64,000 nucleotides of DNA from Desulfomonilia bacterium. Lineage in GTDB: Bacteria; Desulfobacterota; Desulfomonilia; UBA1062. The notes below the pieces were generated by a model, which was not told the origin of the DNA, searched no databases, and saw only the letters and a program-made list of their open reading frames with translations. Each line of letters begins with the position of its first letter. Position 1 is the first letter of the stretch. The stretch is taken from contig DATCTV010000027.1 of the NCBI GenBank assembly GCA_036567785.1, positions 97,384 to 161,383 of the forward strand. The letters are read 5' to 3'. A program made the translations under genes and the position numbers. This document shows, one piece after another, positions 31,543 to 61,544 of the stretch.

Positions 31543-31566
31543 GTAACTATATGATAATATAGTTAC
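31543..31566. promoter_or_regulatory. Perfect 10-bp palindrome GTAACTATAT-gata-ATATAGTTAC in the nth/NRPS divergent promoter region (candidate operator)
   Basis: Read directly. It lies 29 bp upstream of the GTG at 31595 and 95 bp upstream of the ATG at 31661, and 14 bp downstream of a -35-like TTGAAC (31524-31529). Confidence 0.6.
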
Positions 31567-31660
31567 ATTTTAATATTGATTATAGGCATAGTTCGTGCAA
31601 ATAAATATTGTTGATGTTATACAATATTTTAAATACTGGGATTCACGGGGGACACGATTG

Positions 31661-33400
31661 ATGGAATACATACATTCAAGAGATTCAATAAGTAGAGGAC
31701 CGGAACTCAATATCCTTCCTTATTTTGCCAGGACGCTGCCCGAGCTTCTAAGAAATTCCATAGTCGTAGGTCCGGACAGGGGTGTGATCTTTGTTGATGC
31801 AGATGGAACTGAAACAAAGCTATCATATAAAAATCTGCTCGAAGACGCATCAAAGGTTTTAACCGGTCTTAGATTGAACGGTTTAGAGCCCGAAGACAAG
31901 GTTGTTTTACAGATTGAAAATGACAGGCTCTTCCTGACAGTTTTCTGGGGAGTTGTTCTGGGAGGCGGCATCCCGGTGCCTCTTGCTCTCCCGAACAGTT
32001 TTCCAATAAGCGAAGGCTCGGAAAAAGTTGCAAATGTATGTGCTCTTATCGGGGATCCCTTTATTGTAACGGACAAAGCTCCTTCAGAATATAAAGATAT
32101 TGTTTCAAGGTCCGTATTGCTGGCAGATGAGTTGACGGTAAACATTCCCGCACAGGATTATCATAATCCGGACCCTGATGATATTGCTTATATACAGTTC
32201 TCTTCGGGATCAACAGGCGATGCCAAAGGTGTAACCCTTACACACAGGAACATACTTACCAACATATATGCGATACTCGAGGCCTCTACCAACCAGGAGC
32301 AGCTCGCTTTACGAGACGAACTCTTAAGCCATCCTTTAAAAGAATATAACATCCCATACAGTGTGTGCAGCTGGTTGCCATATTCGCACGATATGGGGTT
32401 GATCGGATTCCATCTTACACCTATGGCAGGAAGCATGCTTCAGATAAAAATGTCGACCACGACCTTTGTAATCAATCCGACATTAAATCTTATCCTGATA
32501 GATAAGTACAGAGTAACGCAGATACCGAGCCCTAATTTCGGTCTTCTCTGGATGCTTTACATGATTAAGGACGAAAGCATAAAGGGAATTGACCTGTCGT
32601 GTATCGAGGTCCTTTTTAACGGGGCAGAGCCGATATCGCCTCTTGCCGTAAGACTGTTTATCGACCGATTCAGACAATATGGTTTTAATCCGAAAGCCAT
32701 GTTTCCTGTATACGGTATGGCAGAAGCAGCACTTATGGTTACCGCGCCACCTATGGGCACGGATATTCTGTATCATATGCTGGACAGGGAATCATTTACA
32801 AAAGAACATGTTGCGATTGAGGCAAAAGCGGATCTTCCTGTTATTGAATTTGTTGATGAAGGTTATCCTGCTATGGGAATGGAGCTGAGAATTGTCGATA
32901 ATGAAGATAATGTGGTCAAGGAGGGGACTGTCGGCCATATACAGATCAAGGGGCCGAATGTAACGAGCGGTTATTATAAAAAAGAAGAATTGAATTCGGA
33001 GCTCTTCTGCGACGGGTGGCTGAGGACAGGCGATCTCGGTTTTCTGCTTAACGGAAGACTGACTGTTACAGGACGACATAAGGATGTCATATTTGTGAAT
33101 GGTCAGAATTATTATTCGCATGACATTGAAGAAGAGCTTCAGCAGCTGCCTTTTGTCGGCTTTAAAAACATGGTGGTCTGTGGTGTGACCGATCATTCCA
33201 GAGGCACCGAGAGCATTGTGCTTTTCATCAAGACTAAAAAATCCAAAGAAAGCCTTATCGAATTGCTTGGAAAAATTAACAAACATCTTGCGAACAAGAT
33301 AAGGGTTGGCATTGAATCCATTGTCCCGATGCATGATATACCAAGAACCACAAGCGGCAAGGCCCAGAGATTTATACTCAGGGAGAGATATGAAGCCGGT
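31661..33400 (+). other. FAAL domain 1 (approximate bounds), not followed by a carrier domain
   Basis: The adenylate-forming motifs are intact, including the A10 Lys. A linker of about 60 aa with no GxDS(L/I) carrier motif follows before FAAL domain 2. Confidence 0.7.
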
Positions 33401-36400
33401 GACTTCAGGGACAGAGAGGCAAAAAGGCTTGAACCGAACATTTACAATGAAAATGTCCCCAAGGTTGTGCAACCGCCATTAAAAAGAGAAGGGGTATCAG
33501 CCAGAAAGAAGGATTTAAACCTAAACGGTTTGATAAATGACCTTCCTTTTGCAATAGCTGAATCAAAAGTCCACCAGTTTCTTCCCCAGGTCGTAAAGAA
33601 TCTGCCACAGGTATTGAGGATCGCATGCACTATAGCACCGGATTCAGGTATCCTGCATGTCGATGAAAATGGTAATGAGCACCTTCAGACATATGCAAGC
33701 CTTATGAACTCGGCCGAGAAAGTTCTACGGGGATTAAGGGCCCATGGATATAAACCTGGAGATCAGGCCATCCTGCAAATCGAGAATTCCGACGAATTTC
33801 TTGTAGCCTTCTGGGGAATAATCCTTGCAGGAGTAATACCGGTTCCTTTACCTATCCCTGGGACATTCCCCATCAGTGAGGGTATGGAGAGGATAACAAA
33901 AGTTTGCGGCGTACTGGATAAGTTCTGTATAATTTCGGACCAGCCTGAAAGGTCTTACCGCTCTCTTGGAAAAGTCGATTTTCTGAGTATCGAAGAACTG
34001 CTTACATATGAACCTGACAAGAATCACCACAATCCGGATACTGACGATGTCGCATATCTCCAGTTCTCTTCAGGCTCTACAGGCGATCCGAAGGGCGTAA
34101 TGCTGACACATTACAATCTTATATATACTATAGATGCCTCGGCGAAATGCATGTTTGATGTCAGAGGAAACGATATAAGGCCGACTCTCGGATATGGTAT
34201 CCACATATTGAAGCATAAATTTGGCAGAAACAAAGGTGTCGGCGGTTTTGCAAAACTTCTGAATAAGATATCCATGAGCGGTCTGGGTGAAAAAATAAGC
34301 TCATCAAAATATGGCAAATATATTCTTGATACGGCGCTCATATTCAGCGGCATCAAGGTTTCCGCATATACGGATATGCGGATAGATGAGATAAAGATCG
34401 TAAACTGGATGCCTTATTCCCATGACATGGGGCTTATCGGCTTCCACCTTGCCCCTACCATGGGAGGAATGGACCAGATTAAGCTTGAACCGAAGACTTT
34501 TATTCAGAAACCCGCACTTTTCTTGAAACTGATTGACAAATACAGGGGAACACACGTTCCGTGCCCTAATTTTGCTGCTCAGTGGCTGACAACGCAGGTG
34601 GATGACGATGACATAAAGGGTATAGACCTTTCATGCATAAAGTCTCTAACGAATGGTTCCGAACCGATTTCACCGCTGGTTTCAAGGGATTTTATAAAAA
34701 AATACGAAAAATTCGGACTGGATTCCAGGTCGATGTTCATGTGCTATGGCATGGCTGAGGCATCACTTCAGGTAACTGCCCCGCCGGTATTTACTGAACC
34801 TGTTTTCCATAAAGCGGATAAGGATGTCTTTTTAAAGGATCAGATAATACTTCCAACAGTTTCTGATGAAGACAGTATTGAACTTACAGATGTAGGTGGA
34901 CCTGTTGCGGGTATGAAAATAAGGATTGTCGATGACAACGATAATCTTGTCCATGAATTCACGATTGGACATATCCAGATTCAGGGCCCGAATGTTGTCA
35001 AGGGCTATTACAACAATGAAGCGGCCAATAAGGACCTGTTCTGCGGAGAGTGGCTCCGTACAGGCGACATGGGTTTTATGAAAAACGGCCGGATAACAAT
35101 AACAGGAAGACGCAAGGATATAATTTTCGTCAACGGTCAGAACCTGTATGCCCATGATATCGAGGAACAGATTAGACGTGTTCCGGGTATGGCATTCCGT
35201 GAATTTGCGATTGCAGGCCTCAGAGATCTGGACAGTGACAGCGAAAAGATCATTTTTTTCATCAATACAGCAGAGTCAATAACATCCCTTTCATCTCTTC
35301 TCTCCAGAATAAACGAAAATCTTGTATCAACGATCGGTATCAAACTTGATTTCATAGTGCCTGTTCCAGAAATACCCAGGACGCCAAGTGCGAAGGTCAA
35401 ACGCTACAGTCTCAGGGAACAGTTCGAAAAGGGCATGTATGAAACCGTTGTATCGGTAAATGATATCGGCGAAGTACTCGCTGCTTCAAGAGACGAAAAG
35501 GGATTTGAACTTACAGCGGTTGAGCAGCGTATTATCGAGATATGGAGGGATGTCCTTGGTATAGATGCAATATCAAAATTCGATAACTTTTTCGATCTCG
35601 GAGGCAATTCCCTTCGTGCTACGAAAGTCACTTCGAGACTTAGAGAGGAATTCAGTATTGAACTCGGATTAAAGGTCATCTTCGAACATCAGACGGTTGA
35701 AACGCTTGCAGAAGCAGTTGAATCTTTGACTCGGACGGAGAGGGAGAAGTTTCCCGAGATCAAACGCCTGGAAAAGGCAGAATATTACGAACTGTCTCAT
35801 GCCCAGAAAAGGCTTTGGCTGCTTGATAAAGTTGTTCCAGACAGCCCCTTCTACAACATTCCCGGAGCGGTCCTGATTGACGGTGTTGAACTTGATTTTG
35901 CTGTACTTAGGGATTCGCTTCAGGCCGTCGCTGACCGGCATGAAACGCTGAGAACGGTTTTCGTGACCGTTAATGACGAGCCGGTACAGGTTGTAAATGA
36001 TTCATTCAAAGTTGAAATGCCGGTGTACGACCTGAGACATGAAGAGGGTAAGGAAGAAAGGCTTCAGGCAATAATATCTGAAGAAAAAGTAAGGCCTTTT
36101 GATCTGGAAAAAGGCCCGCTGTTCAGGGTTATGATTATAAGGCTTTCAGAAACGAAGAATGTGTTCATGATAGTAATGAACCATATCATCTCGGACGGAT
36201 GGTCCATGTCGATACTTGTCCAGGAGGTTATCGGAAATTATCTGGCGCTGAATTCAAAGTCACCGTCACCCTATTCCGAATTGCCCGTACAATACAGGGA
36301 CTTTGCCTTCTGGCAGAACAGACTGCTGGAGGGTGAGGGCATAAAAGTACAGGAAAAATACTGGCTTGAAAATCTGTCCGGAAAGCTGCCCTTGCTTAAT

Positions 36401-39400
36401 CTGCCCACAGACAGGCCCAGACCCGCCATCCAGACTCAGAATGCGGGTACGGCAAGAATAAAGATTGATCAGAAGACTTTAAACGGCATCAAGGAGCTTG
36501 CAAGAAAAGAAGACGTGACAATGTTCATGCTTACCCTGGCCCTTTTCGATGTAATGCTTTCAAAACTTTCAGGCCAGGAGGATATTATAATTGGTGCACC
36601 TATTGCCGGCCGCAACAATTCCCAGATCGAACCTCTGATAGGATTCTTTGTGAATGTTCTGCCCATGAGGATTGACCTTTCCGGGAACCCTGATCTTTCA
36701 GAGCTTCTGAAACGCGTTAAGAAAACAGCAATTGGCGCCTATGCAAACCAGGAGTACCCGTTTGACAGGCTCGTTGAAGTTCTTAACCCGGTGAGGGATC
36801 TCAGCAGGACTCCAATCTTCGATATCACGTTCGAATTCCGCGAGGCATCGGCAAATCCGTTTGCCGGTTCCGGGATATCGGGAATAACAATAAAGGATGT
36901 TACGGGAGACGATCCGAATTCGAGGTTCGACATGAGCGTCACCGGTTATGAGGAGCCTGACGGAATAACGATGCGCTTCGAATATAATGCCGATCTGTTC
37001 AAAAGAGAGACCATCGAACGCTTCATGGAATACTATAAGCATATAATTGAAGATGTGCTTATGAATCCTGAGAAGCGCATTGCTGACATAGAAATGCTCT
37101 CCTCTTCCGAGAAAACACGGATTCTAAAGGAATTCAACGAATCCGCATTTCCCGTACCAGAGGGTGAGACAATGCCTTCGATCATCTCTGCGAAGGTAAG
37201 GGAATTCTCTGATCGTCCTGCAATTATTTTTAAAGATGAGGAAATAACATATGCCGGCGTTGATATTTTATCAAACAGGGTTGCGACATTTCTTATAAGC
37301 AAAGGTGTTGCACCAGGTGACATGGTGGCCATACTTTCAAACAGATGTCCCGAAATGATCATAGCGTGTCTGGGTATCTGGAAAGCAGGTGCGGCCTATG
37401 TGCCCATTGACCCTGATTATCCTTCTGAAAGAATCCGGCTGATGATTGAAGATTCAGGTGCAAAGGTATTGTTCCTGCAGAGAGATCTTTTAAACATGAT
37501 ACCTGAATGCGGTATCGTAACAGCAGCTCTGGACAAGGGATCAGAAGTCTGGCAGTCATCAGGCAACGCCCCCGATATTCATATCAAGCCTGATATGCTT
37601 GCTTATATAATCTATACTTCCGGTTCTACGGGCAGACCTAAAGGAACCATGATACCGCATAAGAATGTAATCAATTTTGCATTGTGGTACAGCCGGTTTT
37701 TCAATTTCACTGAACATGACAGAGGCACCAATCTTTCCGGTGTTGCATTTGATGCAACCGTTCTTGAAATATGGCCTTGTCTTGCATCCGGTGCCTGTAT
37801 TGTATCACTGGACCGCCGTCTCGGAGAAATGATGCCGGAAGAGCTTGCACAATGGATGATAGACAAGAAAGTCACCAAGACTTTCATCCCGACAAAGCTT
37901 GCAGAAATATTTGTGGGTATGGATTTTGAAGGGCTTTCACTGAATCTTATGACTACCGGCGGAGACAGATTGAGCTTTGTGCCGAGACATCCTTCATATG
38001 CCTTATTCAATGTGTATGGTCCGACCGAAACAACGGTTCTGTCGACCTATATGGATATCAGCAGATGGAACAATGAGGACGGCAATCCGCCTATCGGCCG
38101 TCCGACAGGCAATACACTGATATACATTCTGGACAAATACCTTAAACCGGTTCCGGTTGGTGTAGTCGGACAGATATACATCGGCGGAGCAGGCGTGGGC
38201 AGAGGGTATTTTAACGATCCCGAAAAGACAGCAAAGTCTTTCATCCCTGACCCGTTCAAAGGGGGGGAAGCCAGGATGTATGCATCAGGCGACCTCGGCA
38301 GATGGCTGCCGGATGGTAATATAGATTTCATAGGACGTTCTGATTTCCAGATCGAGATAAGGGGCTACAGGGTTGAGATGGGAGAGATAGAAGCGGTCCT
38401 GTCATCACATGAGCAAATCAGGGAATGTGTTGTCATCGACAAGAAGGATTCGGAGGACCAGATAAGGCTTGCTGCCTTCTATCTGGCCGAATCTCCTTTG
38501 TCCAATGAGGAGTTACATTCATATCTGAAGATTTACCTGCCTCATTATATGATACCTTCTCAGTTCATATACCTGGAAAGCCTCCCGATGACGCCGAACG
38601 GAAAACTGGACCGTGAAGCCCTTATCAGAATGGTCACACTTGAAGCAAGCCAGACTGAATATATTGAACCTCGTACAGAGACCGAGCGCCTTCTCGTTGA
38701 TATCTGGAAGGACATACTGAATGTCGAGCGCATAGGGGTCATGGATAATTTCTTTGACCTAGGCGGCCATTCGTTGAAAGCCACTCGTGTAATGTCGCGC
38801 ATAAAAAGTTCACTTAATGTCGATGTACCTTTGAGGGTTATGTTTGAACAGCCGACAATCAGAGATCTGGCTCTGGCAATTCAAGGAATGAAATCGGGAG
38901 AATCAGTTTCATCGGATATCCCGGTACTTGAAAAAAGGGATTATTACGAGATATCAAATGCACAGAAGCGGTTATGGTTCCTCGACAAACTTATACTTGA
39001 TCCTTCCTCATACAATGTACATGCGGATGTACTCCTGGAAGGAAAACTTGATACCGATGTCTTAAGAAAAGCTTTTCAGGCGGTTGTTGATCGTCAGGAA
39101 GGACTCAGGACTACATTCTCAACGGTTAACGGAAGACCTGTCCAGGTAATAACAGACAGGCTTGAAGTCGAGATGCCCGTTGTTGATATGACAGGTAAAA
39201 GCGAGGATGGGCCCGAGGTTAAACTCGTTATTGATCTGGAAGGCGCCTATCATTTCAATCTCGAAAAGGGCCCGCTTTTCAGGATCAAGATGCTGAAGCT
39301 GGGTGATGACAAACATATTCTCATGCTCACAATGCACCATATAATTTCTGACGGATGGTCGCTCGGCATACTCCTAAGGGAGGTTGCTGCGGAATATGCG

Positions 39401-42400
39401 GCTTTCATCAATAATGCCGAATCGGTGCTCCCGCCTCTCAAGATACAGTATCGCGATTTTTCCGCATGGCAGAAAAGCCTGCTGGAAAACGGCTTATTAA
39501 AAGACCAGGAAGATTACTGGGTGAAAAAACTGGGAGGGCCGCTGCCTTTCCTTGACCTTCCTGTTGACCGCCCGAGGCCTCCTATACAGACAAACAACGG
39601 TGCCGTTCATACGATAAAGCTTGATGAGACACTTACTCAAAATCTCAGAAATTGTGCAAAAACTCAGGATATAACTCTGTTCATGCTTCTTCTTTCATCT
39701 TTCGGGGTATTGCTGAGCAAATTGAGTCAGCAGCAGGATATAATAGTCGGTTCGCCGATAGCCGGACGGAATCATCACGATCTGGAAGAGCTTATCGGAT
39801 TTTTCATCAATACACTGGCGCTTCGCATGGATATGTCCGGCGATCCGGAATTTAACAAACTGCTTGCCCAGGTGAAACAGACCTGCCTTGATGCCTATGC
39901 AAACCAGGACTATCCGTTCGACCGTCTTATAGACATCCTTAATCCTACTCGTGATACCAGCGCCACGCCTGTTTTCAACGTCATGTTTGTCCTTGAGAAT
40001 GCAACTGATGACCTGAGCGAGGCAAGACTGGGAGATCTGAGGTTTAAGAACATTACACATGATCGTGGCGTAGCAAAATTCGATATAACCCTGATTGCTT
40101 CAGAAGAAGCAGGTCTGATAAAGATGCAGTTCGAGTACAACACTGACCTGTTCAATAAGGAAACTATCGAGAGATTCGGCAATTTCTATGTCAAACTGCT
40201 CAATGAGATATCGGCTGATCCAACAAAGAAACTGAGCGCCCTGGACATTCTTGACGGTGCCGAGCTCAATAAAATCCTTGTGGAATTCAATGCTACTGAT
40301 TCATTTTATCCGAAAGACAAATGTCCATATGACCTCTTCGAAGAACAGGTAAACAAGACTCCCGATAAGACGGCCGTTGTATTCGAAGGCAAGGAGCTTA
40401 CCTACCGCGAGCTCAATGAGAAATCAAACATGCTTGCGCGGTATCTGCGTGCCAGGGGTGTGGAGAAAGAAGTAAAGGTGGGTCTTCTTGTCGAACGTTC
40501 AGATGACATAATCACGAGCGTTCTTGCCGTTCACAAGGCGGGTGGTGCCTATGTGCCGATGGATCCTGCATATCCTAAGGCCAGACTCGAATATATGCTG
40601 GAGGATTCAAAGAGCCCTGTTCTGATTACTCAGAGCCATCTGCTGGAAAGGATTGCCAACTGTCCGGCAACCGCCGTATGCCTTGATACTGACTGGCCGG
40701 AAATTTCAACAGAGAGCGGAGATAATCTGGAGCCTGTCGCAGGTCCGGAAAATATTTCGCATCTAATATACACATCCGGTTCAACCGGACTTCCTAAAGG
40801 TGTCATGATTGAACACCGCAATGTAACCGCCTTTTTATACTGGTGCCTTGAGGAATTCAGCTTCGATGAATATGAGGAGATGATATTCTCAACCTCGATG
40901 TGTTTCGATCTATCTGTCTTTGAAATGCTTCTGCCTTTGATAACAGGGGCAAAGGTCATTGTGCTCAGAAGTTCGCTTGACCTTGATGATTATTTCAGTT
41001 CAGGCAATACCGCCACTATGGTTAATACCGTTCCTTCCGCCCTTAAACACCTCTTGAACATAGCAGGAAGAAAGCACAGGATAAAGGCTGTAAATCTTGC
41101 AGGAGAGCCTCTCAAGCTTGATCTGGTCAAAGAGGCATATTCCAAACTTGACGTTGATATGGTTCGAAATCTTTACGGACCGACTGAGGACACCACATAT
41201 TCGACAAATTTCCGTGTTAACAGGAATTTCAACAGGCAGCCGCTCATAGGAAGGCCCATTTCAAACACGAAGGCATATATACTCGATAAGCATATGAAGC
41301 CGGTACCCATTGGCGTCAAAGGAGAAATATATCTCTCCGGCCACGACCTTGCCAGGGGGTACTGGAATGCCCCGGAAAAAACCGCGCAACGCTTTATCCC
41401 CAATCCATTCAGCAGCGAGTTCTGTCCTTATATCTACAAGACTGGAGACCTGGGAAGCTGGCTGCCTGACGGCAATATTGAATTTCACGGACGTGTAGAT
41501 TACCAGGTGAAAATCAGAGGCAACCGCATCGAAATGGGTGAGATCGAAACGCGGCTTTCAGAACACCCTTCGATAACCGATGCTGTGGTTATTGACAAGG
41601 ACGATGCGGAAGGGAACAAGTACCTGGCAGCCTATTATGTGGCTGACGAAGATATATCGGTCACTGATCTGCGCGCCTATCTGAAAGAATCGCTTCCCGA
41701 CTATATGATTCCTTCACGTTTTATCTTCATGGAGAGTCTGCCGTTGACTCCGAACGGAAAAGTCGACCGTAATGCATTGCCTGAGCCCGAAGGCCTCCGG
41801 CCATCGGTCGAATCAGAATATGTTGCGCCAAGGGATGAGATTGAAAAGATACTGGCTGAAATATGGCAGGAGATCCTGGGAATCGAGAAGGTCGGAATCT
41901 TTGATAATTTCTTCGAACTCGGCGGCGATTCCATAATAAGCCTCCAGGTGGTCAACCGTCTGAATCAACACGGTTACAGGCTGCATCCGAAGGATATACT
42001 TCAAAGACAGACAATAGCTGAACTTTCGAGTGCTGTGGTCGCCATCGAAACCGCTTCTGCCGAGCAAGCGCCAGTAAGCGGTGTTTCACCTCTCACACCT
42101 ATCCAGCACTGGTTCTTCAATCAGAATCCTGAAAATGAAAACCATTACAATCAGGCCCTGCTATTTGTGTCGAAGGACCGCCTTAACGGGGGCGACATAC
42201 TCCATAAGGCCCTGCAGGGAATATTGGATCACCATGATGTTCTGCGTTCCCGTTTTATTGATGGTGAACAGAGAATAGAGGGCCTTGGTGAAAAAGTGAA
42301 CTTTATTACAAAAAAGATTGATTCCGAAGACGTTCTGGATGAAGAGATCGATAAAGTTCAATCTTCACTGAACATCAAAGAGGGCCCTGTATTCCGTGCG

Positions 42401-43426: not shown

Positions 43427-43436
43427 GGAGATTGTA

Positions 43437-47921: not shown

Positions 47922-47935
47922 ACGGAGGAACTCAA

Positions 47936-52447: not shown

Positions 52448-52475
52448 TACATGTGCGAGAAGGAGATAACAAGAT

Positions 52476-55400
52476 ATGGTCCAGAAAAAAGCAGAAAAAA
52501 AAGTAGAGGACATCTATCCGCTTTCACCTATGCAACAGGGTATGCTTTTTTATGCCCTTCTGGAACCGGACTCTCCTATATATTCCGAACGCTTTACCTA
52601 TACAATTGAGGGAGACCTCAATGTCGATGCTTTTTTAAAGGCCTGGCAGCACCTCGGTAATGTCCATCCTCTGTTTCGTACGGTATTCAGGTGGGAAGGA
52701 GTCAACGAGCCGGTACAGATAGTGCTGAAGGACAGGTCACCTGAAATCGAGCTTCATGACTTCTCCGGAATGTCAGGAGAAGAGGAAAAGCATAACATTA
52801 AAAATTTTCTTTCAACAGAAAGCAAACGCAGATTCGATCTGGCAAACGGTCCGCTGGTAAGGCTTCATTTGTTTATTCTCAAAAATCAGAGATTCTTCTT
52901 TTCATGGTCCTTCCACCATATACTGACAGACGGTTGGTGCATTCCTCTGATCCTCTCCGACCTATTCGTGACATATCTGTCCATTCTTGAGAACAAGCCC
53001 CTTCCATCCATAAAGAGGCCTCAATACAGGAATTACATTGCATGGCTAAAAAAGCAGGACAAAACAAAGGCCGAGAAATACTGGAAAAAAATTCTCGGCA
53101 GCTTCGAGGCGCCGACTCCGCTGCCTCAGGATTTTCATCCGAAGGAGCGCGGAATTTCGAATGTAGGAAAGAAGAGTCTTATCCTGGATGAAAAGTTGAC
53201 TGCGGCGCTGAATGAAACCGCACGGAAACAGCGAATCACTCTGAGTACCCTTGTGCAAACGGCATGGTCGATACTTCTCGGCCGTTACAGCAGACAGGAG
53301 GATGTGGTCTTCGGTGTTACTTTATCTGGAAGGCCGGCCGACCTGCCGGGCTCAGACGAAATGATAGGCCTGTTCATCAACACGCTCCCCGTTCGTGCGA
53401 ACTTTGAGAATGGTATTACAATAGAAGAGCTGATGACTGACCTTCAATCGCAGGCTCTCAAAATAGAGGAATTCGGCTATTCATTCCTGCCCGAGGTAAA
53501 GGCCTGTAGTGCCGTGCCTGGAAAGGCCAACCTCTTCAACAACCTCTTCATCTTCGAGAATTACCCTGTGAACATGGGAGAAATGACCGGGGATTCCACA
53601 ATACGCATTACTGACTCAACGATTGAGGAAATGACGCATTATGACCTTACACTAGTGATTACACCCGGGAAGAAGCTTGATATAAACCTCGGATATGCGC
53701 TTGATCTCTTTGCACCTGAAACCATCGATCGCATGCTGTCCCATTTGAAAATAATTCTCGAACAGATAACGATAGACATAAAGCAGCCGGCTTCAACAGT
53801 TGACATAATGAGCCCGCAGGAAAAAGAAATGGTCTTGTTCGGGTTTAATTCAACTGCTAGCGAATATTCAAGAGATGCAACAATTGTAGATGTATTTGAA
53901 GCCCGGGTGCAGAAGAATCCGGACAGTACAGCTGTTGTTTTCAGAGAGAATTCACTGAGTTTCGAAGAACTGAATATCAGGGCCAACAAACTTGCACGTG
54001 CACTCATCTCAAACGGAGTCAAACCGGGAGCACTGGTGGGCATGATGGTAGGCGACCCGCTTGAGACCATACTTTCAATTCTGGGCATATTGAAGGCCGG
54101 CGGCGCTTATATGCCGATCGATCCTGACTTTCCTGAAGCACGCATAGATTTCATGCTGGATGACAGCTGTACTCCAGTTGTAATCAGCAGGGAGGAGTTT
54201 GCCGACAAGGTTCCCCTCTCTCAAAAGGTGCTGTACCTTGACAGAGACTGGCATGAGATAGAGAAGCAGGACCCTTCCAATCCGGGGATTAAAATCAGTG
54301 CAGAAGATATTGCCTATTCAATCTACACGTCGGGCTCCACAGGAAAACCCAAGGGTACGCTTATACCGCACCGCGGGGTAATAAATCTTGTTCATGGTCT
54401 TGTAAAGATACTCTATTCCTATTATGAAGGGCATCTGAGGGTTGCGCAGCTGGCTTCATTCAGTTTCGACGCCTCGGTTCAGCAGATATTCGCATCGCTC
54501 CTCCTGGGTCATACACTTTATCCCATTCCAGGGAGCATAAAAAAGGACCTGGGACAGCTGATCCCTTACATCCTGAAAAATGAAATCGAGGTAATAGACG
54601 GGACGCCTTCGTTGTGGGAACTCCTAGTTGGCAGCGGCATCATGGATGAACCCGAATTGAAACTCAGGCATGTGATCATAGGCGGGGAAGCCCTGCCGGT
54701 AGATCTTGTCCGGAGATATCATGACGGGGTTTACGGGAAATCCACAAGATGGACAAATGTTTACGGAGTCACTGAATCGAGCGTCGATTCCACATCGTAT
54801 CTTGTTGATATCGATGCGCTTAAGAACAGAATATCTGTGCCGATCGGGGCACCCATTGTAAATACATGGATATACATACTTGACGGCAACAGGAATCCTG
54901 TGCCTGTAGGTGTACCCGGAGAGCTTTATATAGGCGGTGACGGTCTTGCAAAGGGTTATCTCAACAATCCCGAACGGACGGAACAGAACTTCGTCCCCGA
55001 TCCCTTCCGTGATGGCGAGCTTATGTACAGGACAGGCGACCTTGGCAAATGGCTTCTGGACGGGAACATAGATTTTCTGGGGCGTATAGATTTCCAGATC
55101 AAAATAAGGGGATTCAGAATAGAGCTGGGTGAAATAGAATCCGCAATGTCGTCATATCCCGGTATTGAAGATTGTGTGGTTGTCGACAGAATCGATGCGG
55201 CCGGAGACAGGTATCTTATAGGGTTCTATGTGGCCAGCAATGAGATATCAATACCGGACCTGCGCAACAGTCTGGCCGGGGCCCTGCCTGACTATATGGT
55301 TCCGGGCAGGTTCATGAGACTTGATGCCCTGCCGCTCAACACAAGCGGCAAGGTGGACAGGAACTCGCTGCCCGAGCCTGAAGACAGCTTCAACGCAAGT

Positions 55401-58400
55401 GAAACCGAATATGTAGCTCCAAGAAATGATACGGAAAAGGCCCTGGCGCTTATATGGCAGGATGTCCTGGCAATCGATAAGGTGGGAGTGAAAGACAACT
55501 TCTTCGATATAGGAGGCCATTCCCTCAAAGCTACGAAGGTCGTTTCCCGTATCAAAAAGGATATGAATATCGAACTGCCGCTGAGGGCCATTTTCGAAGA
55601 CCCCACAATTGAAGGCCTTGGCAGAGCCATCTCTTCAATGCAGGGGCAGAAGCTGGGCGAGATACCGAAACTGCCGCATAAGGACGCATACGAGCTCTCT
55701 CATGCGCAGAAAAGGCTCTGGTTCCTCGAGCAGATGACCCCTGGGTCTTCAACATATAATATCCCCATGGCGCTTATGATAGAAGGGGAGATACAGACAG
55801 ACCTGATGGAAAAGGCCCTTAACAGTGTAGCACTGCGCCATGAAACACTCAGGACATCATTTTCAAGTGTGGACGGTGAACCTGTTCAAATTATCGAACC
55901 TTCGATTCACGTTGATCTTAATTTGACTGACATGACTGATAAAACCGAAGAACAGATTTCCCTGGCAGTCATAAATGAAATTTCCGGTTCATTCGACCTG
56001 GCTGCAACGCCGCTCTTCAGGGCGTGTCTTTATAAGCTTGGGGAAAACAAACACCTCTTCGTGTTTACTATTCATCATATCATTTCAGACGGATGGTCAA
56101 CCGAGGTGCTCCTTAAGGAACTGATCGGGACATATATGTCGCTTATGACCGAGACCAAAGCGGCGCTCCCTGACCTCAAAGTTCAATATAAGGATTATGC
56201 ATCATGGCAGAACAGACTGATTGAAGAAGGCATGCTCAAGGGTCAGGAGGAATACTGGGTCAAGAAACTTGCAGCTCCTCTCCCGGTGCTCGACCTGCCG
56301 ACAGACAGACCCAGGCCTCCATTACAGACTTATAATGGAGCGGTTTACAAATTTGAATTCGACGGGGATGTTGCTAAACAATTGAACTCCTTTGCAAAGA
56401 AGCAGGGAGCCACAATGTTCATGACCATCCTTAGCGCTTTCACTGTCCTAATCAACAGGCTCAGTAATCAGGAGGATATTATAATAGGAACGCCCATTGC
56501 CGGCCGCAATCATCCCGATCTCGAACCTCTGATAGGGTTCTTTGTCAATACTCTTGCATTACGGGTTGATGTGAGCGACAACCCGAGCTTTACTGAGCTT
56601 GTAAAAAGGGTGAAATCCGTCTGCATTGAGGCATATGCGAATCAGGACTACCCGTTTGACGGCTTGATAGATGTCCTGAACCCGGTCAGGGATGTAAGCA
56701 GAAATGCTATATTCGGCGTAATGTACATACACCAGAACATGACCGATCTTTTCGGTATGAAGACGGGTCTTTCAATCAAACCGGTCGAAGCAGACCTGAC
56801 TACCACCAAATTTGATCTGACGTTTTCATCAGTTGAGATTGGTGAGCGTCTGCTGGGATATCTTGAATACAATACCGACCTGTTCGACAGGACTACAATC
56901 GAGGGCTTTGCAGGGTTTATCAAAAATATCCTTGCAGAGGCGTCTGTGAAGCCTGAAACCAGGGTTTTTGCTTTCGATGTGCTGGGCGAAGAAGAAAGGC
57001 ATAAGCTTCTGGTTGAATTCAATGATACGGACAAACCCTATGACCTAAGCAGATGTACATACCAGATGTTCGAGGAGCAAGCGGCAAAGACTCCTGACAG
57101 GATTGCCGTTACCGCTTATGACGGGCGGAAACTTACTTACCGCGAATTGAACGAAAGGATGAACCAGCTCGCAAGACGGCTTAGAAAGCTAGGTGTAGGC
57201 GCAGAGACAATGGTTGCGGTAATGCTTGAGCGTTCGATTGAAATGGAGATCGCTCTTCTTGGCATAAACAAGGCGGGCGGAGCATATGTGCCTATGGGGA
57301 CGGACTATCCCGAGGCGCGTGTGGATTATATCCTTAAAGATACAAATGCACCGGTGGTTCTGGTACAGGAAAAATATGCGTCGAAGTTCGAAGGCAAGAA
57401 TATTATCGTGATTTCTCTGGACAGCGGATGGGATGATATTTCATCTGAAGACACCTCAAACCCCGAACCAGTCAGCGGTCCCGAGAACCTGGCCTATGTC
57501 CTGTATACTTCAGGTTCCACCGGCGTGCCCAAAGGCGTAGCGTGCATACACATAGGACTTACCAACAGGCTGATATGGATGCAGGAAGCCTACGGACTCA
57601 AAGAGGACGACTGCATACTGCAGAAGACGCCATACACTTTCGACGTCTCGGGCTGGGAATTTCACTGGCCGATAATGTACGGAGCGCGTCTGCACTTCCT
57701 GATGCCCGACGGACAAAAGGACCCCTCGCACATCATGGAAGTAATTAACGAGCAGAAGGTAACGACTCTTCATTTCGTTCCTTCCATGCTGGGCGGATTT
57801 CTACAGGTTGTCGATGATTCCAATAAGGCCAGTCTGGCATCGTTGAGGCGTGTAATCTGTTCAGGCGAGGCCCTTCTTGCAGAGCACCGCGATACGTTCT
57901 TCCGTTATATCGACTGCGAACTGCACAACCTTTATGGTCCGACTGAGGCCTCGATAGACGTGACGTATTACGAATTGAGTCCCGATGACAAATCAAACAT
58001 CGTCCCCATTGGCAAGCCTCTTGCCAATACGAGGATATACATACTCAACAAGCATATGCAGCTTGTCCCTGTAGGCGTGCCCGGCCAGATATTCCTTGCA
58101 GGTGTACAGCTCGCTAGAGGCTATGTGAATCAGCCTGAAAAGACAGCGGACGCATTCATCGATTTCAATATTTCCAGGGATAACCGGTTGTACAAAACCG
58201 GAGATCTCGGTGCATGGATGCATGACGGGAATATAGAATACCTTGGCCGTATAGACCATCAGGTAAAGATACGTGGTAACCGGGTTGAACTGGGAGAGGT
58301 CGAATCCGCTCTGTGCAGGTTCAGCGGGGTCCGTGAATGCGTTGTGGTTGACAAGACTGACCCGTCGGGAAGCAAATATCTTGTGGGCTATTATGCCTCC

Positions 58401-60008
58401 GATAATGAACTGCCTGTTGATGAACTTCGCAGATTCCTGCATGATTTCCTGCCCGAATATATGATTCCGACGCGCTTCATATGCATGCCGGGCCTACCCC
58501 TTAATGCGAACGGCAAGGTGGACAGAAAGCAGCTGCCCGAAATCGAAAGCGTGCGGCCTGAGATGGCCAATGAGTATGTGGCCCCATCCACCGATGTCGA
58601 AAAGCTGCTGGCACAAGTCTGGAAGGAAGTTCTGGGAGTGGAAAGAGTGGGAATCAACGACAATTTCTTCGACCTGGGAGGCCATTCACTGCTTATCATG
58701 AAGGTAATCGCCAAGGTAAAGATGTCGTTGCCTTTAACCGTTCAGGACTTTTTCGATAACCAGACAATTTCAGGCCTTGCTAAATGCGTTGAGGAGAAGG
58801 CGCTTGCCGCACGAAAGACATCGTCTCAAAAAGAATTGATTGAAGAGAAATTCGATGGCTTCAAGGTGGACATACCCGTCTCGGGAAAAACCGAAGAAAT
58901 GAAGTCGATTCTTATGACCGGTGCAAGCGGCTATCTTGGTTCCCATCTCTTGAGAGACCTGCTGAATGATACTGATGCGGATATCATATGCCTTCTTCCG
59001 GGGAAGAATGTTGATGATGCAAGGAAGATGCTTTTTGAAGCAATCGATTTCTATTTCAGGGATGAAGGGCTTGATACCTCGCGTCTGAAAATTTTTGCAA
59101 GCGATATCGGCATTGACGGGTTAGGTCTGGACGGTGATGCCCTTGAACTCATAAAGAATACGGACACCGTAATTCATGTGGCGGCTGATGTAAGGCATTT
59201 TGGTGATTACAAGCATTTCAGGAATATCAATGTTCTCGGCACCAAACGTGTGCTCTCTCTCGCTGAAACCGGAAAGGCCAAACGTTTCCATCATGTTTCA
59301 ACACTCAGTGTTGCTGGAGATTTTGTTCCAGGCTTTTCCAAGGTGGTATTCAAGGAGACCGATTATGACCGAGGACAGGAGCTCGGGAATGTATATGCGA
59401 AAAGCAAATTCGAAGCCGAAGGTGTTGTCCGTGAAGCAATGGCCAGGGGTGTCAAGTGCACCATATACCGTATCGGCAACCTTGTCGGAGAATCCCGATC
59501 AGGCCTTTTCCAGAAAAACATAGACGGAAGTTCCTTTTACGGACTGCTCAAATCGATTATCGAAACAGGGGTGATACCTGACGGCGACGGTGGAATGTTC
59601 GACTTTACACCCGTCGACTGCTGCAGCAAGGCGATAGCAACCCTGGCTCGCATTCCCGAAACATCAGGCCGGTGTCTGCACCTCTTTAATCCCGACTTGA
59701 TTTCACTGAAGGGACTTGTTGAAATCATGAATTCAAACGGTTACCACATAAGAATAGTCAATGTCGAAGAATATGCACTGGCTCTAGGAACAGCCCAGGC
59801 CGAAAAGGGCAGCAAGGCTATAGAAGGACTGCTGCCGTATCTGGAGGCAAAATCCGTGACACAATATGTTCTCGACAACAGCTATTCAAGACATTTCCTT
59901 GACGGCCTGGGTTTTTCATGGCCTGAAGTTGATGAGGCCTTTATAGGAAAGCTTCTTGGCTACTGCGCAAAGGTCGGATTTATAGGGAAGCCGCAGGTCG
60001 GTAAATAA
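52476..60008 (+). CDS. NRPS 4: C(DCL-type)-A-T-C(LCL)-A-T-R (modules 5-6 plus terminal thioester reductase)
   Basis: HHILTDGWC. YTSGSTGKPKG. GGHSLKAT. HHIISDGWS. YTSGSTGVPKG. GGHSLLIMKV. The R domain has LMTGASGYLGSHLL (Rossmann) and YAKSK (YxxxK). An AAGGAG ribosome-binding site is present. Confidence 0.9.
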   Translation: MVQKKAEKKVEDIYPLSPMQQGMLFYALLEPDSPIYSERFTYTIEGDLNVDAFLKAWQHLGNVHPLFRTVFRWEGVNEPVQIVLKDRSPEIELHDFSGMSGEEEKHNIKNFLSTESKRRFDLANGPLVRLHLFILKNQRFFFSWSFHHILTDGWCIPLILSDLFVTYLSILENKPLPSIKRPQYRNYIAWLKKQDKTKAEKYWKKILGSFEAPTPLPQDFHPKERGISNVGKKSLILDEKLTAALNETARKQRITLSTLVQTAWSILLGRYSRQEDVVFGVTLSGRPADLPGSDEMIGLFINTLPVRANFENGITIEELMTDLQSQALKIEEFGYSFLPEVKACSAVPGKANLFNNLFIFENYPVNMGEMTGDSTIRITDSTIEEMTHYDLTLVITPGKKLDINLGYALDLFAPETIDRMLSHLKIILEQITIDIKQPASTVDIMSPQEKEMVLFGFNSTASEYSRDATIVDVFEARVQKNPDSTAVVFRENSLSFEELNIRANKLARALISNGVKPGALVGMMVGDPLETILSILGILKAGGAYMPIDPDFPEARIDFMLDDSCTPVVISREEFADKVPLSQKVLYLDRDWHEIEKQDPSNPGIKISAEDIAYSIYTSGSTGKPKGTLIPHRGVINLVHGLVKILYSYYEGHLRVAQLASFSFDASVQQIFASLLLGHTLYPIPGSIKKDLGQLIPYILKNEIEVIDGTPSLWELLVGSGIMDEPELKLRHVIIGGEALPVDLVRRYHDGVYGKSTRWTNVYGVTESSVDSTSYLVDIDALKNRISVPIGAPIVNTWIYILDGNRNPVPVGVPGELYIGGDGLAKGYLNNPERTEQNFVPDPFRDGELMYRTGDLGKWLLDGNIDFLGRIDFQIKIRGFRIELGEIESAMSSYPGIEDCVVVDRIDAAGDRYLIGFYVASNEISIPDLRNSLAGALPDYMVPGRFMRLDALPLNTSGKVDRNSLPEPEDSFNASETEYVAPRNDTEKALALIWQDVLAIDKVGVKDNFFDIGGHSLKATKVVSRIKKDMNIELPLRAIFEDPTIEGLGRAISSMQGQKLGEIPKLPHKDAYELSHAQKRLWFLEQMTPGSSTYNIPMALMIEGEIQTDLMEKALNSVALRHETLRTSFSSVDGEPVQIIEPSIHVDLNLTDMTDKTEEQISLAVINEISGSFDLAATPLFRACLYKLGENKHLFVFTIHHIISDGWSTEVLLKELIGTYMSLMTETKAALPDLKVQYKDYASWQNRLIEEGMLKGQEEYWVKKLAAPLPVLDLPTDRPRPPLQTYNGAVYKFEFDGDVAKQLNSFAKKQGATMFMTILSAFTVLINRLSNQEDIIIGTPIAGRNHPDLEPLIGFFVNTLALRVDVSDNPSFTELVKRVKSVCIEAYANQDYPFDGLIDVLNPVRDVSRNAIFGVMYIHQNMTDLFGMKTGLSIKPVEADLTTTKFDLTFSSVEIGERLLGYLEYNTDLFDRTTIEGFAGFIKNILAEASVKPETRVFAFDVLGEEERHKLLVEFNDTDKPYDLSRCTYQMFEEQAAKTPDRIAVTAYDGRKLTYRELNERMNQLARRLRKLGVGAETMVAVMLERSIEMEIALLGINKAGGAYVPMGTDYPEARVDYILKDTNAPVVLVQEKYASKFEGKNIIVISLDSGWDDISSEDTSNPEPVSGPENLAYVLYTSGSTGVPKGVACIHIGLTNRLIWMQEAYGLKEDDCILQKTPYTFDVSGWEFHWPIMYGARLHFLMPDGQKDPSHIMEVINEQKVTTLHFVPSMLGGFLQVVDDSNKASLASLRRVICSGEALLAEHRDTFFRYIDCELHNLYGPTEASIDVTYYELSPDDKSNIVPIGKPLANTRIYILNKHMQLVPVGVPGQIFLAGVQLARGYVNQPEKTADAFIDFNISRDNRLYKTGDLGAWMHDGNIEYLGRIDHQVKIRGNRVELGEVESALCRFSGVRECVVVDKTDPSGSKYLVGYYASDNELPVDELRRFLHDFLPEYMIPTRFICMPGLPLNANGKVDRKQLPEIESVRPEMANEYVAPSTDVEKLLAQVWKEVLGVERVGINDNFFDLGGHSLLIMKVIAKVKMSLPLTVQDFFDNQTISGLAKCVEEKALAARKTSSQKELIEEKFDGFKVDIPVSGKTEEMKSILMTGASGYLGSHLLRDLLNDTDADIICLLPGKNVDDARKMLFEAIDFYFRDEGLDTSRLKIFASDIGIDGLGLDGDALELIKNTDTVIHVAADVRHFGDYKHFRNINVLGTKRVLSLAETGKAKRFHHVSTLSVAGDFVPGFSKVVFKETDYDRGQELGNVYAKSKFEAEGVVREAMARGVKCTIYRIGNLVGESRSGLFQKNIDGSSFYGLLKSIIETGVIPDGDGGMFDFTPVDCCSKAIATLARIPETSGRCLHLFNPDLISLKGLVEIMNSNGYHIRIVNVEEYALALGTAQAEKGSKAIEGLLPYLEAKSVTQYVLDNSYSRHFLDGLGFSWPEVDEAFIGKLLGYCAKVGFIGKPQVGK
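58900..60005 (+). other. Terminal NAD(P)H-dependent thioester reductase (R/TD) domain of NRPS 4 (approximate bounds)
   Basis: TGASGYLG glycine-rich loop and the YAKSK catalytic dyad, placed after the last T domain. Confidence 0.8.
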
Positions 60009-60028
60009 AATTGTAAACAGGGGACGAT

Positions 60029-60769
60029 ATGAAGATAGGAATAGTCACAGGGGCCGCATCCGGAATGGGCAGAGAGTTTGCCTGCCAGGTTGTGAATGCA
60101 TATCCGATGGATGAAATTTGGCTGATAGACAGGGAGGAAAATGGGCTTGAAGAAACCGCAAAACTGATAGGGAATATAAAGGCCGTCACAATAGCCCTTG
60201 ACCTTTCGAGAGAGGATGACCTGAAAAGACTAAGAGACAAGATAGTCAATGCAGCGCCCGAGATAACGGTGCTGAACAATAACGCCGGTTTCAGTTATAT
60301 ATGCCCGTTTATGGAGGCATCCCTTCCCAGGACGATGAATATGATAGATGTTAATGTCAAAGCAGTCGTGGCCATTGCTCATATGTGCGTGCCTTTTATG
60401 AAAAAAGGCTCCGTCATATTTCAGGTGGCGTCGTTGAACGCATTTCTTCCCGCTCCGAACGGGGCTGCATATTCGGGAACCAAGGCGTTTGTGCTGGCTT
60501 TCTCCCAGGCCCTTTACCAGGAGCTTAAGAGCAAGGGCATTCATGTAATGAGCATTTCACCGGGGCCTGTCAGGACGAATTTCATGAAGACGGCTTCCGA
60601 TGGGAATCTTCCGGACTTGAAGAATGCGCTTGAAGCCAAAGATGTGGTTCGTGCCGCGATTAATGATGCAAAGGCCGGCAAACTCAACTCGACATTCGGT
60701 TTTGTCAACCGCCTGAATATTTTTCTGACGCGCATATTAAGCAGGAAAACACTTCTGGGAATGTCTTAA
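60029..60769 (+). CDS. SDR-family short-chain dehydrogenase/reductase
   Basis: GIVTGAASGMGREF (TGxxxGxG), NNAG, and YSGTKAFV (YxxxK). It lies 20 nt after NRPS 4, and its position suggests tailoring, for example reduction of aldehyde to alcohol. Confidence 0.8.
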   Translation: MKIGIVTGAASGMGREFACQVVNAYPMDEIWLIDREENGLEETAKLIGNIKAVTIALDLSREDDLKRLRDKIVNAAPEITVLNNNAGFSYICPFMEASLPRTMNMIDVNVKAVVAIAHMCVPFMKKGSVIFQVASLNAFLPAPNGAAYSGTKAFVLAFSQALYQELKSKGIHVMSISPGPVRTNFMKTASDGNLPDLKNALEAKDVVRAAINDAKAGKLNSTFGFVNRLNIFLTRILSRKTLLGMS

Positions 60770-60791
60770 TCAAAATCAAGGAGAGCGGATT

Positions 60792-61544
60792 TTGGCGAAT
60801 GAATGGATAAAACTTTCTAGCGGCGAGGATGCGATAAGGCTATTCTGTTTCCCGTTTTCCGGCGGCACTGCACAGGTATACAGACCTCTGGCAAGACTCC
60901 TGCCTAACGGCATCTGCGTATTTGCATATGAGCTTCCCGGACGGGGCAGACGTTTTAACGACCCGGCTTTTGAAAATATATCCGATATGGTCAGTGATGC
61001 CATGAAGGCATTGATGCCTTTACTCTCGAATCCGAACTTTGCCTTTTTCGGATATTCTCTGGGGGGTCTTCTTGCATATGAAGCGGCACATGAACTGAGC
61101 AGAAAGGGAGTCAACCTGCCCAGGCATATTTTCGTGGCTGCATCGAGGGCCCCTCATCTGTCCCGCAGGGAAGATGAAACCTCCTATTATGATCTTCCCG
61201 ATGAGAAGTTCATAAGCAAACTGAAGGAAATGGGAGGAACCCCGCAGGAGGTTCTGGAAAATCAGGAAATACTCGAGCTCATGCTTCCGGTCATCAGGAA
61301 GGACTTTAAGGCTTATGAGACTTATAAGAACACAAATGATAAGCCGCTTAACTGCCCGATAACGGCATTCGGGGGGGAATTTGACAGGCTTGTGCTTCCC
61401 TCGGATGTCCAGGAGTGGTCGAAGCACACCGCGAAGCTGTTCCTGAAACATATGTATGAAGGGGACCATTTCTTCATTCAGACTTATGCGGAGAAGATGG
61501 CAGGCGCTATCACCAGGGCCCTTGCCATGCAAAGGCCATGGTAA
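60792..61544 (+). CDS. Type II thioesterase (alpha/beta hydrolase, NRPS editing TEII)
   Basis: LFCFPFSGGTAQVY and the GYSLGG nucleophile elbow. It appears to use a TTG start, with an AGGAGA ribosome-binding site 7 nt upstream. Confidence 0.8.
   Translation: MANEWIKLSSGEDAIRLFCFPFSGGTAQVYRPLARLLPNGICVFAYELPGRGRRFNDPAFENISDMVSDAMKALMPLLSNPNFAFFGYSLGGLLAYEAAHELSRKGVNLPRHIFVAASRAPHLSRREDETSYYDLPDEKFISKLKEMGGTPQEVLENQEILELMLPVIRKDFKAYETYKNTNDKPLNCPITAFGGEFDRLVLPSDVQEWSKHTAKLFLKHMYEGDHFFIQTYAEKMAGAITRALAMQRPW

Follow-up and report, generated by a model that had tools for sequence, protein, structure and literature searches.

A 64,000-nucleotide stretch of the genome of a Desulfomonilia bacterium (GenBank assembly GCA_036567785.1, contig DATCTV010000027.1, positions 97,384 to 161,383; this whole stretch is referred to below as the window) was found to encode a real and intact six-module nonribosomal peptide synthetase (NRPS) assembly line, the first protein of which opens with two complete domains resembling fatty acyl-AMP ligases (FAALs), placed head-to-tail in front of a single carrier. 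Judging by its sequence, the cluster appears to be an orphan NRPS of a well-known kind, and what looks new is the multi-FAAL variant of lipoinitiation, of which we found no description in the literature. For the pathway as a whole, we consider it probable that this is a chromosomal, vertically inherited NRPS making a reduced N-acyl hexapeptide; here the domain order comes from the sequence, and the chemistry is deduced from NRPS logic.

The assembly line is encoded by four collinear genes, N1 to N4, in open reading frames (ORFs) 31595-43426, 43419-47921, 47936-52447 and 52476-60008; these and the other parts of the cluster lie on the + strand. According to Pfam and a motif map, the four proteins comprise six amino-acid adenylation (A) domains, nine Condensation-family domains, seven carriers (T) and one terminal NAD_binding_4 domain. 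Condensation, AMP-binding, AMP-binding_C and PP-binding were found by Pfam all along the proteins, and NAD_binding_4 at the C-terminus of N4. With condensation, epimerisation and thioester reductase domains abbreviated as C, E and R, the order obtained from the motif map and Pfam on sub-fragments is [FAAL-FAAL-T]-[C-A-T]-[C-A-T-E] / [C-A-T-E] / [C-A-T-E] / [C-A-T]-[C-A-T-R], followed by a short-chain dehydrogenase/reductase (SDR) and a type II thioesterase (TEII). The repeated C-A-T units with intact core motifs, including Asp235, Lys517 and the GGxS carrier serine, are those of a modular type I NRPS. An earlier interpretation made from the letters of this DNA (the sequence-only reading) had also recognized four collinear NRPS genes with six A domains, and the ORFs, Pfam and the motif map agree on this point.

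The lipoinitiation unit occupies the beginning of N1 (31661..43426), whose domain order by Pfam and motifs is FAAL(a)-FAAL(z)-T0-C1-A1-T1-C2-A2-T2-E2. The upstream FAAL-like domain, Fa (31661..33433; N1 aa 23-613; PF00501, E=1.6e-44), is followed by the carrier-proximal one, Fz (33545..35470; aa 651-1292; PF00501, E=1e-47), and then by the loading carrier T0 (35525..35719; aa 1311-1375; GGNSL, PF00550). T0 is the only carrier for both domains, and no carrier motif was found in the 37-aa linker between Fa and Fz. Next comes the acyl-accepting domain C1 (35777..37123; PF00668, E=9e-118). The sequence-only reading had placed a plain, separate FAAL-ACP unit before the synthetase genes; actually, the unit has the structure FAAL-FAAL-T0 and is fused into the first NRPS protein.

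Fa and Fz are 45-51% identical to each other, and the top NCBIfam family of both is NF006624, fatty acyl-AMP ligase (337 and 294 bits, respectively, both under the curated cut-off of 600). Among solved structures, the best sequence matches of Fa were an A domain that selects keto acids (6ULX/6ULW), McyG, EcFAAL (3PBK), LpFAAL (3KXW) and the mycobacterial FadD23/28/32. For Fz, an AlphaFold (AF2) model with a pLDDT of 86 was compared with known structures by Foldseek, and the best matches were LpFAAL, McyG, EcFAAL and the olefin-synthase FAAL, with TM values of 0.74/0.85 to 3PBK. The NF006624 matches, the PDB matches and the core motifs place both Fa and Fz nearest to the FAAL family, and the ANL fold is provided by the Fz model. 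FAALs are marked by a specific insertion or helix and by an alternative, proline-lined 4'-phosphopantetheine pocket, which keep CoA out; in both domains a long segment was seen between A5 and A6, as a candidate for the insertion. Fz also bears an insertion of ~60-80 aa after motif A3 (~34157-34399; N1 aa ~855-935), which forms four helices in the model and is confined to the Fz clade, including the single-FAAL relatives P0003, P0004 and P0008-P0012 (related proteins and loci are denoted here by P and L numbers). Motifs A3, A4, A5, A6, A7 and A8 and the A10 lysine (K590 in Fa and K1268 in Fz) are intact in every FAAL copy. The copies are under strong purifying selection, with between-species ratios of nonsynonymous to synonymous substitutions (dN/dS) of 0.05 for Fa and 0.06-0.07 for Fz.

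Arrays of this type were also found in relatives. A scan with one genome per species revealed related loci in two metagenome-assembled genomes (MAGs) labelled uncultured Bacteriovoracaceae (L001 and L003) and in a MAG labelled Desulfomonilia (L002). The order in L001 is FAAL-FAAL-T, and in L002 (first gene of 4530 aa) and L003 (4541 aa) three FAALs stand in a row before a single carrier. Among the 2552 matches to a FAAL-FAAL-T query, coverage of more than ~55% of the query was observed only for P0001 (88% identical) and P0002 (57% identical, partial, with at least three FAALs), the others being single FAAL-T(-C-A-T) proteins. When Fa was used in a HMMER search of 1.84 billion representatives, scores above 1000 bits were obtained for P0241, P0001, P0242 and P0002, and the next match scored 621 bits. 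P0242 (2889 aa) has the order Fa-Fz-T-C-A-T-E and belongs to another NRPS cluster; the Fa domains of P0002 and P0242 have diverged to 55-60% identity. Matches of the FAAL region to named proteins did not exceed 43% identity, apart from two MAG proteins, a partial one from Thermodesulfobacteriota (57%) and one from Spirochaetota (54%).

The survey of tandem FAALs covered the best 150 of 13,217 matches with E <=1e-30. Beyond the arrays described above, it revealed one further direct tandem among the new proteins of the listed representatives, P0337 (1347 aa), a stand-alone FAAL-FAAL-ACP protein of a different FAAL subfamily. Tandem FAAL architecture is thus rare among the inspected sequences, which is a lower-bound statement, and yet has arisen more than once. 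The P0337 gene (L009 4743-8786; GCA_020200995.1, JAIVHQ010000012.1) lies outside any NRPS and is followed by a gene for an Sfp-type phosphopantetheinyl transferase (PPTase), with an MBOAT gene nearby. It represents an independent tandem FAAL system, possibly one that acylates an envelope component.

As to the origin of the arrays, the neighbour-joining tree places the upstream FAALs (Fa and, in three-FAAL arrays, Fb) in a clade of their own with 100% bootstrap; its sister clade, also with 100% bootstrap, unites Fz with the single-FAAL proteins P0003, P0004, P0008, P0010 and P0012. No members of the Fa clade outside tandem arrays were found among the sequences in the tree. Since the single-FAAL relatives (P0003, P0004) carry the Fz type alone, the original loader is Fz, and Fa was added later through duplication of the domain. 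Such duplication is ongoing: Fa and Fb of L002 are 92% identical (dS 0.28), and those of L003 are 76% identical. In L002, the Fa/Fb differences gather at domain residues 350-400, taken as the variable FAAL-insertion region, and are uninformative on specificity.

What may the extra FAALs do? According to the pathway that we propose, a FAAL domain would adenylate a carboxylic, most likely fatty, acid and load it onto T0, whereupon C1 would pass the acyl group to the hydrophobic residue 1. Fa and Fz, together with the third FAAL in the sister species, would be alternative entry points through which different acyl chains reach the shared T0, thereby broadening the range of lipid tails. Such parallel activation of starters is the least certain step of the pathway, and we put it forward tentatively, as an explanation that falls just short of probable. 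It is favoured because of the precedent of the FAALs PuwC and PuwI, which serve as alternatives at the start of one puwainaphycin/minutissamide line and, covering different ranges of chain length, give C10-C14 and C16-C18 tails (PMC9016887). Unlike PuwC and PuwI, which represent two separate alternative loading modules, the FAALs described here lie in cis and share one carrier.

The intactness of the copies bears on another explanation, in which only the carrier-proximal FAAL loads the starter and the extra upstream one is a non-loading partner with a structural, regulatory or redundant role. Tandem A domains located in one NRPS module of PyrG (pyridomycin) and AurA (auriculamide) behave in this way, the first A domain being defective or dispensable (PMC10510592). 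Moreover, single-FAAL relatives manage with the Fz type alone, and the count of upstream FAALs is 1 or 2 across close species, suggesting that the exact number is not critical. However, the inactive A domain of PyrG is devoid of the A3 residues and the catalytic Lys, whereas every FAAL copy here keeps A3-A8 and the A10 Lys and thus does not show the features of a degenerate partner. Furthermore, the dN/dS of Fa is as low as 0.05, equal to that of Fz, and the Fa clade has been kept across genomes even where Fa itself diverged to the extent noted above for P0002 and P0242. We therefore regard a non-loading role for Fa as unlikely.

Still less likely, in our opinion, is that the upstream FAAL or FAALs drive a second acylation, namely the O-acylation of the Ser6 side chain or of serinol, which would yield a di- or tri-acylated lipid-like product. 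The predicted reduced Ser end would offer one or two free hydroxyls, and the upstream FAALs number one or two. The tandem didomain of the eukaryotic protein DIP2, a loose analogue, has been reported as required for the conversion of diacylglycerol (DAG) to triacylglycerol (PMC9342972), and the unrelated FAAL-FAAL-ACP of L009 adjoins an MBOAT O-acyltransferase. At the same time, this scheme is pure speculation. What defines FAALs is that they transfer the acyl group to a phosphopantetheine thiol (PMC8460268), no acyltransferase is present in the window, and Fa and Fz are mutual closest relatives among bacterial FAALs with no specific relationship to DIP2.

The parallel-starter model also has to be viewed against the known types of FAAL-dependent initiation. 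As in other FAAL-initiated lines, where the FAAL is stand-alone, part of a FAAL-ACP didomain, or fused (vioprolide, hapalosin, puwainaphycin), a FAAL-type domain fused to the NRPS loads the starter on a carrier that feeds the first C domain; unlike in those lines, two or three complete FAALs stand head-to-tail before one carrier. A 2025 review of bacterial FAALs describes stand-alone, FAAL-ACP and multidomain forms, the word "tandem" is absent from it, and two FAAL-like domains are mentioned only for human DIP2C (PMC11837247). The tandem didomain of DIP2 was called a novel organisation in the evolution of FAAL-like domains (FLDs), and the architecture combining a DMAP1-binding domain with tandem FLDs was stated not to be seen in prokaryotes (PMC9342972, PMC8460268). 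Like DIP2 (FLD1-FLD2), the unit studied here has two FAAL-like domains in tandem, both needed or conserved. Unlike the cluster, DIP2 possesses a DMAP1-binding domain, has no carrier, C or A domains, functions in DAG metabolism and shows ~16% identity to bacterial FAALs. No DMAP1-binding domain was found by Pfam in N1-N4. The Fa and Fz clades are sisters, and because the two domains are closest to each other inside a bacterial FAAL clade, the duplication is independent of that in DIP2. A broader idea is that arrays of two or three intact FAALs that feed one carrier, or act alongside it, represent an unrecognised bacterial lipoinitiation device, an independent counterpart of the DIP2 didomain. 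The copy number and type would then set which lipid tails are made and in what mixture, or cause a single peptide-alcohol scaffold to be acylated several times; in this general form we consider the idea rather unlikely.

To read the specificity codes, the six A domains were aligned to GrsA, the sequence of which matched 1AMU over 528 residues except residue 2; the control code was DAWTIAAICK. A second alignment made by MAFFT had a gap at position 278 of module 1 and mistook Fz for an A domain, and the first alignment was used for position 278. Asp235 and Lys517 are present in six of the six A domains, hence none of them is degenerate: a lack of Asp235 or the A10 Lys, named in the sequence-only reading as something to be checked, was not observed, all six codes starting with D and ending with K. 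Module 1 consists of C1, A1 (37193..38605; DALFTGVVLK) and T1 (38690..38875; PF00550, GGHSL). The A1 code is not known to have a close match; the Tyr code DALVTGAVVK coincides with it at 7 of 10 positions. For this reason, and because the A1 code differs among relatives, residue 1 is called only hydrophobic. For modules 2-6 the presumed residues follow the Stachelhaus table: Ala for module 2 (38936..43423; C2-A2-T2-E2 by Pfam and motifs; DLFNNALTYK), Ala-like for module 3 (N2, 43419..47921; C3-A3-T3-E3; DLFNCALTYK), Asn for module 4 (N3, 47936..52447; C4-A4-T4-E4; DLTKIGEVGK), and Gln/Glu and Ser for modules 5 and 6, which N4 comprises (52476..60008; C5-A5-T5-C6-A6-T6-R by Pfam, motifs and codes; DAQDIGVVDK and DVWHISLIDK). 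The codes of A2, A3, A5 and A6 are identical in relatives wherever they are readable. In the literature, DLTKIGEVGK is listed among Asn-type codes, and DAQDLGVVDK is given for both Glu and Gln (PMC12283262).

The predicted backbone is thus acyl-X1(hydrophobic)-D-Ala-D-Ala-D-Asn-L-Gln(or Glu)-L-Ser with the Ser carboxyl reduced. It would be built in five elongations into acyl-X1-D-Ala2-D-Ala3-D-Asn4-L-Gln(or Glu)5-L-Ser6, with the E domains inverting residues 2-4 and C domains of the DCL type taking over the inverted residues. Two further mechanisms were considered and rejected. An N-acyl-D-Asn prodrug mechanism of the colibactin/xenocoumacin type does not fit, as D-Asn is residue 4 rather than 1 and no S12 peptidase is found in the window. 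Macrocyclisation to an imine, as in nostocyclopeptide or koranimine, is unlikely, given an acylated N-terminus and the lack of any residue with a free amine.

The predicted stereochemistry follows from the nine condensation-fold domains, which fall into three groups with between-group identities of 17-28%. C1, C2 and C6 (44-48% identical to one another) have the N-terminal motif YE(L/I)SxAQKRLW and (H/N)HIISDGWS; C3, C4 and C5 (42-48%) have IYPLSPxQxGMLF and HHI(L/I)xDG, and this is the sole group placed after E domains; E2, E3 and E4 (43-53%) bear HHxxxDGxS and EGHGRE. The E domains that end modules 2, 3 and 4 score 130, 122 and 137 bits, respectively, with TIGR01720 (NCBIfam cut-off 74), and the carriers preceding them have GGDSI, as T2 does, the remaining carriers having GGHSL or GGNSL. 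The signatures are those reported for the LCL, DCL and E classes by Rausch et al. 2007. By these motifs and the three-way clustering, C3, C4 and C5 are assigned to the DCL type and C2 and C6 to the LCL type, and the types support a predicted L-D-D-D-L-L backbone. C1 has an LCL-like N-terminus and is 44-47% identical to the LCL-type C2/C6, a comparison made within the domains of the window. In its HHxxxDG motif, Asn takes the place of the first His (NHIISDGWS) in the window and likewise in L001 and L003, whereas L002, P0001, P0003 and P0242 have His there; the second, catalytic His is retained.

At all three junctions between the NRPS proteins, the donor has an acidic C-terminal tail with TPSDF and the acceptor has a short tail before IYPLSP; such a layout corresponds to that of the COM domains described by Hahn and Stachelhaus. 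Taken together, these data bear out much of what the sequence-only reading had claimed for the peptide-forming part: E domains after modules 2, 3 and 4 (TIGR01720 above cut-off, motifs, GGDSI carriers), DCL domains after E and LCL domains after non-epimerised modules (signatures and clustering consistent with a D-D-D core at residues 2-4), and COM-like docking tails at the gene boundaries. Its overall proposal of an N-acyl hexapeptide with a D-D-D core and reductive C-terminal release is likewise supported by the domain models, motifs and C-domain clustering.

The assembly line ends in an R domain (58908..59984; PF07993, E=1e-49), which follows the last carrier, contains GASGYLG and YAKSK and scores 238 bits with TIGR01746 against the cut-off of 213. 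Thus, a C-terminal R domain indeed replaces a thioesterase, as had been suggested, and the downstream SDR and TEII were also correctly recognized. The discrete SDR (60029..60769; PF00106 (adh_short), E=2e-38; TGAASGMG, YSGTK) has only generic family matches in NCBIfam. The TEII (60792..61544; PF00975, E=1.5e-43; GYSLG) is discrete and encoded within the cluster, and its presumed editing role would consist in clearing mis-primed carriers. The SDR gene stands directly after the R-terminated synthetase in the window, in the sister species (L004, L005) and in the distant L007/L008, where the SDR is 52% identical. In the latter (L007 5591-14192, L008 779-9380), an NRPS ending in C-A-T-R is followed by the SDR and TEII, after which come a PPTase and a beta-lactamase-fold protein of 567 aa, the last being without a counterpart in the window. 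R-SDR-TEII looks like a conserved release cassette.

The R domain would release the thioester reductively as a peptide aldehyde, which the SDR would then reduce to the alcohol, a peptidyl-serinol. Because an SDR has been kept beside R even in a distant cluster that ends in R, we incline, with modest confidence, to this two-step reduction. A parallel is found in linear gramicidin, in which the R domain of LgrD reportedly acts together with a discrete second reductase, LgrE. Like LgrD, myxochelin MxcG and aureusimine AusA, N4 has a terminal TIGR01746-type R domain in place of a thioesterase; unlike in those systems, the discrete reductase is an SDR rather than an aldo-keto reductase, and the peptide and the organism differ. 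Partial NCBIfam matches to the AusA and MxcG models lie far under the equivalog cut-offs (238 vs 2500 and 218 vs 2300). The sequence-only reading had predicted release as an aldehyde or alcohol and noted that lipopeptide aldehydes are typically protease or proteasome inhibitors. Its reductive part stands, but an inhibitory aldehyde is only one of the options. Were the free aldehyde the end product, the SDR would have another task, perhaps in modifying the acyl chain; reduction by an R domain without a partner often goes no further than the aldehyde, the R domain here is intact, and the SDR has generic family matches only. On the other hand, the repeated location of the SDR beside R, also in the cluster with the 52% identical SDR, points to a release-linked role, and a serinal terminus is chemically labile. 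We consider the aldehyde a serious possibility, though one clearly short of probable, and conservation of the SDR favours the alcohol.

Several points weigh against the pathway as proposed. The substrates of FAALs are unpredictable from sequence, and the prediction of their specificity has been called rudimentary (PMC11837247). Something other than a simple fatty acid may be the starter, because the best structural relatives include McyG, which takes a phenylpropanoid, and a keto-acid A domain; the NF006624 scores of both FAALs, as given above, are under the curated cut-off. That Fa may reach T0, and that Fa and Fz may differ in specificity, are assumptions of the parallel-starter model, and the 92% identity of Fa and Fb in L002, with the differences mostly in a variable loop, poorly fits selection for a new specificity. 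The A1 code is without a close known match, and codes of the A5 type have been recorded with Gln as well as with Glu. Neither MbtH nor PPTase is encoded in the window, according to Pfam on the scanned ORFs of >=150 aa and a six-frame motif scan, in line with what the sequence-only reading had noticed; both would therefore be supplied from elsewhere if needed. Finally, the product structure is a prediction from sequence.

The N1 gene is preceded by the nth-NRPS intergenic region (31504..31660), which may harbour the promoter or leader of the cluster and is ~97% identical to that in L001 and L003 despite a coding dS of ~0.7. Within this region, positions 31544-31567 form a perfect palindrome with 10-nt arms, GTAACTATAT-gata-ATATAGTTAC; the exact palindrome was not found in relatives, where the alignment shows a one-base difference. 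Sigma-70-like hexamers at 31534-31563 were no commoner than chance in a promoter/terminator scan of the nth-N1 spacer against shuffles, and Rfam revealed no RNA family in the window, hence no known riboswitch or leader. Probably, the spacer palindrome serves as an operator or promoter for the cluster. Translation of N1 is likely to start from the ATG at 31661, which a Shine-Dalgarno-like GGGGGA run precedes by 8-13 nt, and P0001 and L001 start likewise; position 31543, previously proposed as the beginning of the cluster, falls in the intergenic region.

Comparison of N4 with 5.8 billion proteins gave a 99% match (P0376) recurring in two independent metagenomes, followed by four unnamed sequences (P0377-P0380) with 51-52% identity over 84% of N4. 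Because the identity of N4 to all named proteins does not exceed 42%, near-identity to a characterised cluster appears unlikely. Look-ups of the exact TEII and SDR sequences of the window gave no record.

Upstream of the cluster, the window contains hemA, a cytochrome c assembly gene, a sirohaem-type gene, proC, tgt, and genes for an amino-acid permease and a hybrid histidine kinase, and, nearer to the cluster, clpS, clpA, aat, PPK2, genes for an HD protein and a Cys/Met PLP enzyme, and two tandem major facilitator superfamily (MFS) transporter genes (27919..30713, + strand; 27919-29322 and 29388-30713; PF07690), with nth on the opposite strand; downstream lie genes for a Big_9/cadherin-like protein and a PAS protein. 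The nth, clpS/clpA and hemA genes and the MFS pair had been listed by the sequence-only reading, which raised the question of whether the cluster was acquired as an island. The housekeeping neighbours and the lack of PPTase/MbtH in the window may be seen as consistent with recent acquisition, as may the GC content at third codon positions of N1 (0.47), somewhat under that of ClpA, Tgt and ProC (0.56-0.60). However, the overall GC content of the cluster and upstream flank is practically the same (0.469 and 0.468), and the cluster-flank tetranucleotide correlations (0.81-0.90) equal those within the flank, showing no break. ARAGORN found no tRNA in the window, and no integrase was seen among the Pfam-scanned window ORFs. 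The gene order ClpA-Aat-PPK2-Zn-ribbon-NUDIX-like-HD-PLP-MFS-Nth / NRPS / SDR-TEII-Big_9-PAS has been preserved both in L003 and in L001+L004 (same contig), and its upstream part also in L002. Since both flanks and the insertion point are syntenic in relatives, the cluster is old in the lineage and probably chromosomal and vertically inherited, and a recently acquired island is highly improbable; composition matching the flanks and synteny in three related genomes thus speak against the earlier suggestion.

At the place of the two tandem MFS genes of the window, three related genomes hold one copy each, so that the pair represents a lineage-specific duplication; the MFS proteins are possible exporters of the product. 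In the region 23540-24458 of the window, three overlapping ORFs of ~180 aa lie on both strands, and only one of them (23910-24458, - strand) has a family match, Zn-ribbon, and is conserved in L002 and L003; the two remaining ORFs are probably not genes. The taxonomic labels of the syntenic related genomes clash at the level of the phylum (Bacteriovoracaceae for L001/L003, Desulfomonilia for L002), and their neighbour proteins are mostly 80-97% identical to those of the window. A RACo corrinoid activator and a faint Met_synt_B12 match among the neighbouring genes of L004, and a GH57 and a ferredoxin-type protein in the window, better fit an anaerobic organism of the Desulfobacterota type. Probably, at least one of the labels is wrong.

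In this work, we describe an orphan lipopeptide pathway from a lineage without a cultured representative, with a predicted D-Ala-D-Ala-D-Asn core and a reduced serine end, matched by no named synthetase. FAAL reviews and papers on DIP2 treat the tandem FAAL didomain as eukaryotic; here it is a bacterial NRPS in which two intact FAALs, or three in the sister species, lie in cis. If the copies do load different acids, they would represent a compact natural route to diverse lipid tails, which may be usable in lipopeptide engineering. They would also provide a tractable bacterial system to address why FAAL-like domains work in pairs.

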